Part shown: one piece after another, positions 25,789 through 29,406 of the stretch
Numbering within the stretch: position 1 is the first letter of the stretch
Layout: each line of letters opens with the position of its first letter
DNA from: Promethearchaeota archaeon
GTDB lineage: Archaea > Asgardarchaeota > Lokiarchaeia > Sigyniarchaeales > SOKP01
DNA length: 64,000 nt
Direction: 5' to 3'
Assembly: GCA_019058445.1 (NCBI GenBank)
Contig: JAHPZA010000004.1
Coordinates: 32,001-96,000, forward strand
Notes under the pieces: model-generated
Seen by the model: the letters and a program-made list of their open reading frames with translations, nothing else
What the model was told of the DNA's origin: nothing
Databases searched by the model: none
Made by a program: the position numbers and the translations under genes

Positions 25789-26181
25789 ATGCCTTTAGTT
25801 AGAGTAGAGATTTTAAAAGGAAAAAGCTCAGAATATAAAAGAGCCATACTAAATGGAATTCATGCCGCTTTAAAAGAAGCTTTAAAAATCCCCGATTATG
25901 ATAGAACACAACGATTATATGAGCTCGATAAATCTAACTTCGAAATTCATAGACAAAGATCAGAAAACTATACAATAATCGAAATAACCATGTTTAGAGG
26001 TCGAAGTCTCGAAGCGAAAAGAAAGCTATATTCAGAAATTGTGAAGAATCTAAAATGTGCCCCAGGAATCGATGGAATGGATATTGTAATTGTTGTACAT
26101 GAGCCTAAATTAGAGAATTGGGGTATTCGAGGAGGAAAACTTCCAAATGAGGCGGGATTAGAATTTAAAATCGAAGTCTAA
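25789..26181 (+). CDS. Tautomerase superfamily protein
   Basis: N-terminal catalytic Pro (MPLVRVEI), 'GRSLEAKRKLY' and 'ENWGIRGG'. Confidence 0.88.
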   Translation: MPLVRVEILKGKSSEYKRAILNGIHAALKEALKIPDYDRTQRLYELDKSNFEIHRQRSENYTIIEITMFRGRSLEAKRKLYSEIVKNLKCAPGIDGMDIVIVVHEPKLENWGIRGGKLPNEAGLEFKIEV

Positions 26182-26345
26182 CAATTAATTTTTTTTTTTA
26201 AATTATAGCATTAGTTTTTAATCCAATCTGATTGATAGTAAATAGATCTTATCTATTATCGGAAAGAATGGTCAGAAAACAAAAAGTTTTTAACATATGA
26301 GATTATTTTTTTTTATAATTAACAACTACATTGGGAATAAAAAAA

Positions 26346-26459
26346 ATGAAAACGCTTCGAAAAAGCATTACTTTTGATATAAAAATAAGTTTGAGGCGAA
26401 TTTCTTCCCTAGTCTTGTTGTTAAGTTTATTAGATCTACTTTTATTATTATTACTTTAA
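26346..26459 (+). CDS. Leucine-rich leader peptide (37 aa) of leuA
   Basis: MKTLRKSITFDIKISLRRISSLVLLLSLLDLLLLLLL*. 15 Leu in total, 13 in the last 16 codons. Ends 93 nt before the leuA ATG. Below the ORF-track length cutoff. Confidence 0.8.
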   Translation: MKTLRKSITFDIKISLRRISSLVLLLSLLDLLLLLLL

Positions 26460-26516
26460 GCCTCGTCTCGTTTTATAATATTTGAGGTCTTTGATCTCTT
26501 ATAAACGTGGTGGGGC
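26460..26516 (+). promoter_or_regulatory. Long RNA hairpin in the leuA leader (putative attenuator switch)
   Basis: GCCUCGUC(26460-67) pairs with GGUGGGGC(26509-16). CGUUU(U)AUAA pairs with UUAUAAACG, and GAGGUC-UUU-GAUCUC forms the apical stem. GC-rich island in an AT-rich spacer. Confidence 0.65.
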
Positions 26517-26552
26517 GTTGTAATATAAATAAATCAAATTAGGTAATTTAAA

Positions 26553-28166
26553 ATGACAGAAAAAGAGGACATATATGTCTCGCAGATGATGGATAAAATA
26601 CGAGGGTCATTGATCCTTCCTGAAAGGGCGTATTTTTTTGATACGACCCTTCGTGATGGAGAACAGACACCAGGAATTAGTTTCAATCATGAAGAAAAAT
26701 TATCAATAGCTCAAGCTTTAAATGAACTAGGGATTGATATCATTGAGGCTGGATTTCCCGTTATTTCTGAGGGAGATTTTAAAGCATGCAAAGATATTTC
26801 TAAAATGGGTTTAGATTCCGAAATAATGGGTTTAGCTCGCATAAAGAAAATCGACATTGATAAAGTTATTGAAGCAGATATGGATAGCATACACGTGTTT
26901 ATTGCAACTTCAGATCTTCACATGAAAGAAAAATTGCAGATGACACGAGAAGAAGTATTAAAGGATATAGCAGAACTAACTTCATATGCTAAGGAGCATT
27001 ATTCAACAGTTTTATTTTCAGCAGAGGATGCAACACGGTCTGACTTGGATTTTTTAATTAAAGCTAATAAAACTGCTGTTGAAAGTGGCGCTACTCGGGT
27101 AAATATACCAGATACTGTTGGTACCATAACTCCTAATGCTTTTGGTTATATCATTCGAAAAAATTATGAAGCACTACCTAAAAACATAAGAATTGCCGCT
27201 CACTGCCATAACGATTTTGGATTGGCAGTTGCAAATACTATTGCTGCGTTTGAGAATGGGGCGTCTGAGGCACAAACTACAATAATAGGATTAGGAGAAC
27301 GAGCGGGAAACGCGGCTTTCGAGGAAACAGCCATGTCTCTTTATGCTTTATATCGAATACCTATGAATATCAATACCAGAAAAATTTTTCCTACAGCAAA
27401 ATTAATAGAAAGCTATTGTGGTGGAAAGATTAAAATAGGAAGATTGCAGCCATTAATCGGCCAAAATGCGTTTGCCCATGAATCTGGCATTCATGCTCAT
27501 GGAATGATAAAACATGCGCGTGTGTATGAACCAATTACACCAGAATTGATAGGAATTCGACGCTCTGATGATGTTGAGCAAATAGTTAAAAAATCGATTA
27601 AATTAGGAAAGCATACAGGAGGGCATGCCCTTAAAGCAAAATTAGAGGATTTAGGAATTCATCCTACAGATATACAATTTAGAAAAATCTTCGATCATAT
27701 CAAAAGATTTGGAGATAAAGGGCATGAAGTAATGGAAGAAGATTTTTTAGCAATTGTAAAAGATGTTATGGGTGAACTACCCGAAGAAGAGCAATATGTA
27801 AAAATTGAGGAACTGACGGTTTTAACCGGCTCCGTTACTCCTACCAGTACCGTTAGGTTAAAGATTCGTAATAATGGAGATTATATAGAAAGAACTGAAT
27901 CTTCTATAGGCGTAGGTCCTGTTGATGCATCATGTAGAGCAATAGTTAAATGCTTTGAGCCTATGAGTAAAGTTAAGCTTTTGGAATATAATATTGATGC
28001 TGTGACTGGAGGAACTGAAGCTTTAGGACATGTTTCCATTGAGTTAATGGATTTAGAAACTAATAATATTGTAAGGGCATCTGCTGCTCATGAGGATATA
28101 GTAATGAGCTCCGTACTTGCGCTTATAAAAGGACTCAATCGTATCGTGAAAGATAAAAATCCATAA
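26553..28166 (+). CDS. leuA: 2-isopropylmalate synthase (DRE-TIM family with C-terminal regulatory domain)
   Basis: DTTLRDGEQ, HCHND, GLGERAGN, FAHESGIH, GVGPVDA. Citramalate synthase cannot be excluded from motifs alone, but the Leu leader favours LeuA. Confidence 0.82.
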   Translation: MTEKEDIYVSQMMDKIRGSLILPERAYFFDTTLRDGEQTPGISFNHEEKLSIAQALNELGIDIIEAGFPVISEGDFKACKDISKMGLDSEIMGLARIKKIDIDKVIEADMDSIHVFIATSDLHMKEKLQMTREEVLKDIAELTSYAKEHYSTVLFSAEDATRSDLDFLIKANKTAVESGATRVNIPDTVGTITPNAFGYIIRKNYEALPKNIRIAAHCHNDFGLAVANTIAAFENGASEAQTTIIGLGERAGNAAFEETAMSLYALYRIPMNINTRKIFPTAKLIESYCGGKIKIGRLQPLIGQNAFAHESGIHAHGMIKHARVYEPITPELIGIRRSDDVEQIVKKSIKLGKHTGGHALKAKLEDLGIHPTDIQFRKIFDHIKRFGDKGHEVMEEDFLAIVKDVMGELPEEEQYVKIEELTVLTGSVTPTSTVRLKIRNNGDYIERTESSIGVGPVDASCRAIVKCFEPMSKVKLLEYNIDAVTGGTEALGHVSIELMDLETNNIVRASAAHEDIVMSSVLALIKGLNRIVKDKNP

Positions 28167-28221: not shown

Positions 28222-29406
28222 CTATTTTAAGAACTCTTCAAGAGAATTATAGACAATTTCTAAAGTATCTAAATCTGGTAAAAATGTTATTCTAAAATGA
28301 TCTTTTCCATAATTACCAAAACCAGAGCCATAAACAGTGCAAATTCCCGTCTTTTTAAGAAGATCTAACACGAATTCTTTATCATTATTCCATTGAGTAA
28401 ATTCTTTAAAATCAATTTTAGGAAATAAATAAAAAGTCCCATCAGCGTTATTACAGGTTAATCCTTCGATTTGCTTTATTCGCTTATAGGAATAATCGCG
28501 TCTCTCTCTTAATTTTTTGACCATTTCATCTGTATGAGGGCCAGGATTTCGAATAGCTTCAATAGCAGCAAATTGAGCTACAGAATTTGCACATAATCTT
28601 GCTCGAGCTAATTTTTCAATACCCTCCTTTAATTCTGCTAATTTATTTAGCTTATCATGGTAATAGATATATCCCATTCGCCACCCGGTTGCAAGATGAG
28701 CTTTTGAAAATCCATTCATTCCAATAATAGGTACGTCATTACTAAGAGAACTAGGACATACATATTCTTTTTCATAGGTTATTTGATCATAGATTTCATC
28801 AGATAAAATAGGTAAATCATATTCACCTGCTAAATCAATGATCTGTTTGATTTTATTTCTACTATATACTATTCCCGTTGGATTATTGGGAGAACAAATC
28901 AAAATGGCTTTAGTTTTATTAGTAATTTTCTTTCTCAAATCATCAATATTAGGTTCCCAATTATCACTTTCGTCAAGTTCATATTCTACTGGAATCCCAT
29001 CAAAAAATTTGGAATAATTAATATAAACTGGATAGGACGGACCAGGGATAAGAAATTCATTATTATTATCTAATAATCCGGCCATAACAAAAAAAATACC
29101 TTCTGTGACTCCAGATGTAATTAAAACATCGTCCGGCTTAAGATCTATGTCATTTTTATTATTTTCATATTTACATATCGCTTCGCGTAGCTCCCTCACA
29201 CCTAAACTATCAACATAATAATTTTGTCCAGCAAAGGTAGCATCCGCAGATGCTTGTGAAATATATTCTGGAGTTTTAAAGTCATATATAACTGGATCTC
29301 CAATATTTAAGTGATATATTTTTTGACCTGTTTTTTTCAGTTCATTCGCGACTGCTGCTACATCTCTTATTGCGTATTCGAGATCTCTTAACCTCCTAGT
29401 AACCAT
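28222..29406 (-). CDS. Class I/II PLP-dependent aminotransferase (alanine/aspartate type)
   Basis: LNIGDP, SPNNPTG, SDEIY, GFSKAHLATGWRMG. Confidence 0.93.
   Translation of the reverse strand: MVTRRLRDLEYAIRDVAAVANELKKTGQKIYHLNIGDPVIYDFKTPEYISQASADATFAGQNYYVDSLGVRELREAICKYENNKNDIDLKPDDVLITSGVTEGIFFVMAGLLDNNNEFLIPGPSYPVYINYSKFFDGIPVEYELDESDNWEPNIDDLRKKITNKTKAILICSPNNPTGIVYSRNKIKQIIDLAGEYDLPILSDEIYDQITYEKEYVCPSSLSNDVPIIGMNGFSKAHLATGWRMGYIYYHDKLNKLAELKEGIEKLARARLCANSVAQFAAIEAIRNPGPHTDEMVKKLRERRDYSYKRIKQIEGLTCNNADGTFYLFPKIDFKEFTQWNNDKEFVLDLLKKTGICTVYGSGFGNYGKDHFRITFLPDLDTLEIVYNSLEEFLK

Follow-up and report, generated by a model that had tools for sequence, protein, structure and literature searches.

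A short leader ORF ending in a run of Leu codons precedes leuA, the gene for 2-isopropylmalate synthase, in a Lokiarchaeia genome. Sequence conservation shows it to be a real, conserved, and previously unannotated regulatory element; its translation and its regulatory role are inferred. The leuA leader is very likely one member of a genome-wide set of cognate-codon attenuators in Promethearchaeia (Lokiarchaeia), a reading that likewise rests on sequence.

A Leu-tailed leader ORF precedes leuA

The window analyzed is a 64,000-nt stretch of contig JAHPZA010000004.1, and positions below are those of the window. As LeuA relatives at 76 to 95% identity are mostly labeled Promethearchaeota/Promethearchaeia (= Lokiarchaeia) MAGs, the host is an archaeon; its genome is 4.6 Mb with a G+C content of ~31%. 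The features of the locus are as follows.

26281..26294, + strand: BRE/TATA-like promoter element of the leader transcript (motif kept in orthologs)
26333..26337, + strand: candidate Shine-Dalgarno (SD) of the leader; doubles as 5' strand in the outer P1 stem (GG motif; fold)
26333..26409, + strand: hairpin P1, enclosing leader SD and start codon (inner stem covariation)
26346..26459, + strand: leader ORF (37 aa), ATG 26346 to TAA 26459, the proposed leucine sensor
26409..26456, + strand: putative control codons, Leu at 13 of the final 16 codons (codon count)
26460..26516, + strand: hairpin P3, ~57 nt, from the first base after the leader stop (fold energy, covariation)
26517..26544, + strand: A-rich spacer (~25 nt) and SD-like motif (26540-26544) (conserved spacing and columns)
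26553..28166, + strand: leuA, 2-isopropylmalate synthase, 537 aa (NF002085 above cut-off; ORF list; activity inferred)

The final seven leader codons are all Leu; the tail draws on CTA, TTG, TTA, and CTT and is free of Phe, Tyr, and Ile. A recount upheld exactly what an earlier note had read here, namely the ORF, its Leu tail, and its codon usage, together with the TATA-like string at 26281-26294 and the 93 nt between the leader stop and the leuA ATG (26553). The note's assignment of the downstream gene to the first committed enzyme of leucine synthesis also held, the 537-aa protein scoring 581.8 bits against NCBIfam NF002085 (cut-off, 517). The same genome encodes a separate citramalate synthase (TIGR00977 above cut-off) and a third LeuA paralog. 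Since the neighboring downstream gene runs on the opposite strand, leuA is monocistronic here. The flanking genes are a tautomerase-family gene upstream (25789-26181) and a convergent alanine-aminotransferase-like gene downstream (28222-29406).

No other stop-to-stop frame on either strand of the 4.6-Mb genome has so Leu-rich a tail (13/16, with 11/16 for the runner-up), and the leader ranks second of 5,223 intergenic short ORFs in an unbiased genome scan (binomial, 6e-9). An in-frame TTG at 26331 is a possible alternative start giving 42 aa, which is disfavored because orthologs keep their start 31 to 39 codons before the stop. A collection of ~15 billion proteins does not contain the exact peptide. 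Evidence for RNA is weak: in one metatranscriptome, low-depth contigs from relatives span 26372-26443 and 26415-26566, give neither strand nor ends, and could derive from DNA.

The leader is conserved in frame among leuA orthologs

Conservation was assessed at 40 distinct leuA loci remaining after duplicate removal, with 66 to 100% LeuA identity and drawn from two families of Promethearchaeia (Lokiarchaeia). A Leu-tailed uORF precedes leuA in 38 of them. It ends 82 to 101 nt before the gene in 35, and the larger distance in the other three reflects an offset in the estimated gene start. Of the two remaining loci, one has its leader, the 39th, displaced by an assembly gap, and one lacks a leader. 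At one locus (L292 in G264), an array of a ~30-nt repeat and an assembly gap lie upstream of leuA at the expected leader site.

In all 38 loci the start lies within the same 31 to 39 codons of the stop, being ATG in 37 and TTG in one, and Leu occupies positions -1 to -6 from the stop in 28 to 38 of the 38 orthologs. In 35/35 orthologous loci the leader frame runs uninterrupted to its stop, with the other two frames open in 0 and 2; this frame was itself chosen by its Leu tail. Over the final 12 codons of these 35 loci, Leu accounts for 308 of 420 (73%). As 97 of these Leu codons are not TTA and only 5 codons are Phe, the tail is neither plain T-richness nor a (TTA)n microsatellite. In-frame conservation with synonymous variation, a check that the earlier note had proposed, thus held at 35 loci. 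N-terminal residues vary freely among orthologs. The relatives behind these counts are not independent samples.

Two conserved hairpins flank the control codons

An A-run with a TATA-like motif lies 56 to 68 nt 5' of the leader start in 25 of 35 orthologs under a strict pattern and in most others by eye, from which a transcript start near 26315-26322 is inferred, though not mapped. A GG-containing motif occupies the leader SD position in most orthologs, and in the fold this SD (26333-26337) pairs with 26405-26409. The P1 inner stem, 26353-26361 with 26390-26398, has 75.6% of cells paired versus 32 to 47% in slid controls; both-side changes occur in 8/9 pairs, and 0/500 shuffles matched it for cells or for covariation score. 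Folding z-scores for P1 are modest (median, -1.2). We infer that P1 likely limits how often the leader is translated.

P3 folds at -20.8 kcal/mol in the source locus (z, -4.2). Its z-score is below -2 in 31/35 orthologs, in which it starts 0 to 6 nt after the stop and is 40 to 65 nt long, with both-side changes in 14/14 counted pairs (0/500 shuffles) and a variable loop. The spacer that follows is 22 to 32 nt in nearly all orthologs and leads to the SD-like motif ~12 nt 5' of the leuA start, whose columns are at least 90% conserved; only 611 of 2,772 genes have such a motif at the equivalent position. The 16S 3' end was not found in the assembly and the anti-SD is thus unconfirmed, so that the leuA and leader SDs stand as candidate motifs.

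Support for P1 and P3 comes from counting named helices, and because these were drawn from member sequences the comparison with slid controls is biased in their favor. RNAalifold on MAFFT alignments gave no consensus structure, the stems containing indels. A terminator scan turned up no hairpin followed by a U-tract at the leuA leader, and its promoter hits were bacterial type and at chance level. P3 is not followed by a conserved U-run either. Rfam, searched at E values up to 5, gave no meaningful match to the leader region; with no Rfam match and a variable P3 loop, a riboswitch or T-box identity was rejected. Judged by eye, the 3' strand of P1 could instead pair with the 5' arm of P3; this was set aside, as the strand in question covaries with the P1 5' strand. 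Both hairpins, and the leader set described below, had been missed in the earlier note.

Cognate leaders precede other amino acid pathways

The unbiased scan of intergenic short ORFs placed a Trp-rich ORF before trpB2 first, the leuA leader second, and an Ile-rich ORF before the citramalate synthase gene fifth. The best-ranked uORFs for Trp, for Ile, and for Ile/Leu/Val (ILV), along with the best two for Leu, all precede cognate or plausibly cognate genes.

Trp leaders are present at 22 of 30 trpB2 loci of relatives, from four families, and at 12/12 trp operons, including those of five genomes without a Trp leader at trpB2. In the source genome, the trpB2 leader (L081:7706-7762, minus strand; G000:C6) is an 18-codon Trp-rich uORF that appears to be leaderless. 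A hairpin ~95 to 130 nt downstream of it has an unusually conserved loop, complementary to a motif just 3' of the leader stop, and the two may constitute a true two-state switch or a protein-binding site.

Ile leaders were found at 16 cimA loci. In that of the source genome (L082:1379-1447; G000:C9), the start region pairs with sequence just after the stop, and a downstream hairpin with a large pyrimidine-rich loop can pair with the purine-rich ribosome-binding site (RBS) once its 5' arm is covered. ILV leaders occur at 19 of 23 loci of a VOR-like oxidoreductase operon; the source copy (L083:2014-2106; G000:C1) precedes a gamma-delta-alpha-beta 2-oxoacid:ferredoxin oxidoreductase operon. For the beta and delta subunits the best specific model is ketoisovalerate oxidoreductase, below cut-off, and alpha and gamma lean to pyruvate synthase.

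The second-best Leu-rich uORF of the scan precedes leuS, and a Leu-tailed leader is found at 4 of 30 leuS loci of relatives. The source leader (L160; G000:C6) lies 195 nt before leuS, and its LeuRS best matches the bacterial-type model TIGR00396. In 10 genomes, two of them truncated at the edge of the locus, His leaders of ~48 to 52 codons lie ~86 nt ahead of hisIE-G-D, with a hairpin directly after the stop. The His codons of these loci (L221-L226, L228, L230, L231, and L233) complement the 5' arm of that hairpin, and directly next to the SD sits a second, small hairpin. Met-rich leaders precede asd-ask in two genomes (G032 and G025; L430 and L431), ~200 to 230 nt upstream of asd and aspartokinase. 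In the Leu, ILV, and His classes the control codons end at the stop and a hairpin follows immediately. Also upstream of a gene, a 42-codon Cys/Gly-repeat ORF (G000:C6, stop at 449638, + strand) lies 87 nt before a 419-aa gene and might encode a modified-peptide precursor.

The leaders appear restricted in gene and lineage

In the source genome, no cognate leader was found before ilvB-like genes, ilvD-like paralogs, aspartokinases, pheA, leuCD, or the third LeuA paralog, nor before ileS, valS, or metS. That genome holds at least seven acetolactate-synthase-like and five dihydroxy-acid-dehydratase-like paralogs, with no obvious leader at any; hisG, trpE, and ilvC were not found in it (92.6% complete). 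Among relatives, a similar scan found no leader directly before 30 aspartokinase and 30 ilvC loci, and hence the leader-finding method does not fire everywhere.

The earlier note had suggested looking for cognate uORFs across Asgard leu, trp, his, and ilv-type genes. They were found in Promethearchaeia; none was found before 29 LeuA/CimA-family loci from other Asgard families, where operon heads were not always reached. Examined Hadarchaea loci likewise showed none, nor did leuA orthologs at 56 to 59% identity. Because the nearest LeuA relatives outside the group are archaeal (40 to 48% identity) and leaderless where examined, we favor an origin of the leader within Promethearchaeia; no tree stands behind this inference.

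A ribosome-stalling model for leuA

At trp, cimA, his, asd-ask, and the VOR-like operon alike, the leader is rich in the amino acid that fits the pathway, which makes sensing of cognate codons by a stalled ribosome very likely, as little else fits. This is inferred from sequence, without direct evidence of translation or regulation. That a stall would switch its targets on is inferred from their being biosynthetic. The earlier note's proposal that stalling under Leu-tRNA shortage turns leuA on is in this sense supported, its translation and direction remaining inferences. The leader does not qualify as a classical leuL-style terminator/antiterminator attenuator, as no hairpin plus U-tract terminator was found, and its output may act on translation or on transcription.

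In the model, a single transcript from near 26318 would carry both leader and leuA, and P1 would keep ribosome loading on the leader rare. When Leu-tRNA is short, a ribosome would stall on the Leu codons and cover the U-rich tail, leaving P3 intact; the A-rich spacer and leuA SD would then stay open and leuA would be expressed. When leucine is plentiful, the ribosome would reach the stop, melt the base of P3, and depart, after which the U-rich tail, with P3 holding the register, would pair over the spacer and SD so that initiation drops. FttA polarity may then cut the untranslated RNA.

In folding predictions, a ribosome footprint at the stop lowers P3 pairs from 20 to 12.7, and a stall six or more codons earlier leaves P3 whole. 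With equal footprints, the RBS is more open in the stalled than in the at-stop state for 21/26 Leu, 12/14 ILV, 7/9 His, and 6/9 Ile leaders, or 46 of 58 across the four classes; these leaders are not independent and the effect is small. Mean RBS openness of the Leu leaders is predicted at 0.50 free, 0.66 stalled, and 0.55 at the stop. The free-state leuA RBS is no more closed than that of 120 ordinary SD genes (0.50 versus 0.45 +/- 0.14). Pairing of the Leu tail with the RBS is predicted at ~0.55 to 0.6 and is relieved by the stall footprint. It does not exceed any of the four specificity controls, namely swaps among orthologs (P = 0.24), shuffled codons, synonymous recoding, and shuffled spacers, and we therefore regard it as generic U:A pairing. 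For the Trp leaders, folding gives no sign of an RBS switch, and a translational output would require coupling or polarity at the multigene trp and his operons. In our judgment, an output that acts mainly by freeing the leuA RBS has a little less than even odds; we mildly favor it over FttA-dependent termination, and the two could act in series through polarity.

Alternative explanations

The strongest rival keeps the same sensor and differs only at the output step. With leucine present, the ribosome would reach the stop, melt P3, and release, leaving U-rich RNA single-stranded and accessible, and termination, by FttA/aCPSF1 or intrinsically at oligo-U, would follow before leuA; a stalled ribosome would hide the U-rich codons while P3 shields the remainder. 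FttA, the archaeal homolog of CPSF73, has a preference for U-rich RNA, and it has been proposed that a coupled ribosome keeps it out (PMC11616081). The source genome encodes FttA (TIGR03675 above cut-off), and the predicted loss of P3 pairs under the at-stop footprint fits this output as well. U4 tracts follow the stop in 14/14 ILV and 9/9 Ile leaders tested, and a U-rich stretch is present in Trp leaders. Such an output would account for control of whole operons, and the failed SD-pairing specificity test leaves room for it. Against it, a U4 tract lies between stop and RBS in only 12/26 Leu and 3/9 His leaders, a ribosome at the stop does not make the U tracts any more accessible, no U-run follows P3, and the fixed distance from P3 to the SD points to the RBS. 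We judge a mainly FttA-based output less likely than not, and less likely than release of the RBS.

A bolder reading is that Lokiarchaeia evolved attenuation independently of bacteria, for at least six amino acids, with stalling blocking FttA cleavage and termination. It draws on the FttA step just weighed, and we lean against it. If true, close relatives of eukaryotes would have an attenuation mechanism based on a termination factor, undescribed so far in any domain.

A further rival, which we consider unlikely, is that the nascent peptide senses free amino acid inside the exit tunnel, as TnaC and the fungal arginine attenuator peptide do, with a stop-codon stall at high leucine. The tightly kept leader length of 31 to 39 codons, about one exit tunnel long, is in its favor. 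However, N-terminal residues are unconserved though RNA pairing there is conserved, and other leader classes range from ~18 to 52 codons. Cognate runs for six amino acid sets, each before its own pathway, suit tRNA charging, which we therefore favor as the sensed quantity.

The same match of codons to pathway excludes, in our view, the two remaining alternatives. A gene for a small hydrophobic membrane peptide, with the hairpin as its terminator or stabilizer and leuA read from its own spacer promoter, is very unlikely. In its favor are the hydrophobic tail and, in the source genome, a TATA-like hexamer ~30 nt ahead of the leuA start. But the position of the hexamer is unconserved, a start ~25 nt past it would omit the conserved SD, and the Trp-, His-, and Met-rich counterparts fit their pathways without resembling membrane peptides. 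Chance or TTA-repeat slippage in AT-rich DNA could appeal to the low G+C content and to TTA making up about two thirds of tail Leu codons against 48% genome-wide, but is all but ruled out by frame-specific openness, the conserved start, synonymous variation, near-zero Phe, and the missing leader before paralogs and, in a similar scan, before aspartokinase and ilvC loci.

Comparison with known systems

Amino acid leader-peptide attenuation is a standard textbook mode of control in bacteria. We found no case of it in Archaea in the open-access literature searched, which leaves out most subscription journals. The archaeal Ribo-seq papers name uORFs only generically. Methanothermobacter trpY is reported to carry Trp at codon 2, with the supply of charged tRNA affecting trp expression (Xie and Reeve 2005). 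That proposal involves one codon in a repressor gene, with neither a leader peptide nor an RNA switch, and to our knowledge there is no other archaeal precedent.

The closest resemblances are bacterial. For the actinobacterial LEU element before leuA, a translational model was proposed (Seliverstov et al. 2005, PMC1262725), and Streptomyces data cited there indicate that a leuA leader mutation did not behave as classical attenuation would. Both systems place a Leu-run leader ORF before leuA without a terminator, and in the LEU element a base stem between Leu codons and leuA SD is proposed. Whereas the LEU element has an apical pseudoknot, the Lokiarchaeia leader has one long covarying hairpin. 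Only in the latter does a further hairpin cover the start of the leader; its promoter is archaeal and its LeuA of archaeal type, and no sequence relation is seen (no Rfam match). The polycysteine uORF attenuators of the mycobacterial 'Cys ribulon' (Canestrari et al., 10.1101/834739) also end in a cognate run, at several loci, without an intrinsic terminator; there, a stalled ribosome was shown to free the downstream RBS, which for Lokiarchaeia is inferred. Those uORFs are leaderless, bacterial, and devoted to one amino acid, whereas the Lokiarchaeia Leu uORF is leadered and belongs to a set spanning Leu, Ile, Val, Trp, His, and Met.

Enterobacterial leuL, trpL, hisL, and ilvL are classical attenuators with cognate codons in short leaders. 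The Lokiarchaeia leaders likewise stand ahead of the first genes of biosynthesis. The ILV leader combines Ile, Leu, and Val codons as ilvL does, and the His and Trp codons can pair with sequence after the stop, as in hisL and trpL. In contrast to the classical systems, Lokiarchaeia leuA lacks a G+C hairpin with a U-tract terminator, shows no evident separate antiterminator, and operates with an archaeal RNA polymerase and no Rho; FttA is considered a functional analog of Rho (PMC13681488). When an antiterminator downstream of the Leu control codons was looked for, none was evident. The codon-to-5'-arm pairing of the His and Trp leaders is pairing only, without covariation data. In tnaC, Rho-dependent attenuation, the fungal arginine attenuator peptide, and the GCN4 uORFs, a ribosome on a uORF also sets downstream expression in response to amino acid status. 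Unlike the cognate-codon runs here, tnaC, the arginine peptide, and GCN4 respond to a free amino acid via the nascent peptide or to eIF2 phosphorylation.

Implications of the leader set

The set suggests that relatives of eukaryotes gauge amino acid supply by ribosome stalling, and it offers a prokaryotic comparison point for eukaryotic uORF control. Direct evidence for archaeal transcription-translation coupling is scarce, according to a 2025 review (PMC13681488), and the leaders of this Asgard lineage are natural, testable reporters of such coupling, of stalling, and of FttA polarity.

The leaders also inform annotation. They separate leuA from cimA among paralogs and mark TrpB2 as a Trp-supply enzyme. 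For genomes in which no ilvC was found, as in the source genome's genus, the ILV leader points to the VOR-like oxidoreductase as a branched-chain amino acid route, with reductive carboxylation hinted at.

Leaders are carried, too, by a probable cultured strain. The closed 6,035,313-bp genome G265, which we take to be that of the cultured Ca. Lokiarchaeum ossiferum, a likely identification, holds three, with leaders at C1:3541713-3541823 and 3543614-3543727: a Leu leader, leuA, an Ile leader, and a cimA-like gene lie in tandem, and a Trp leader is present as well.
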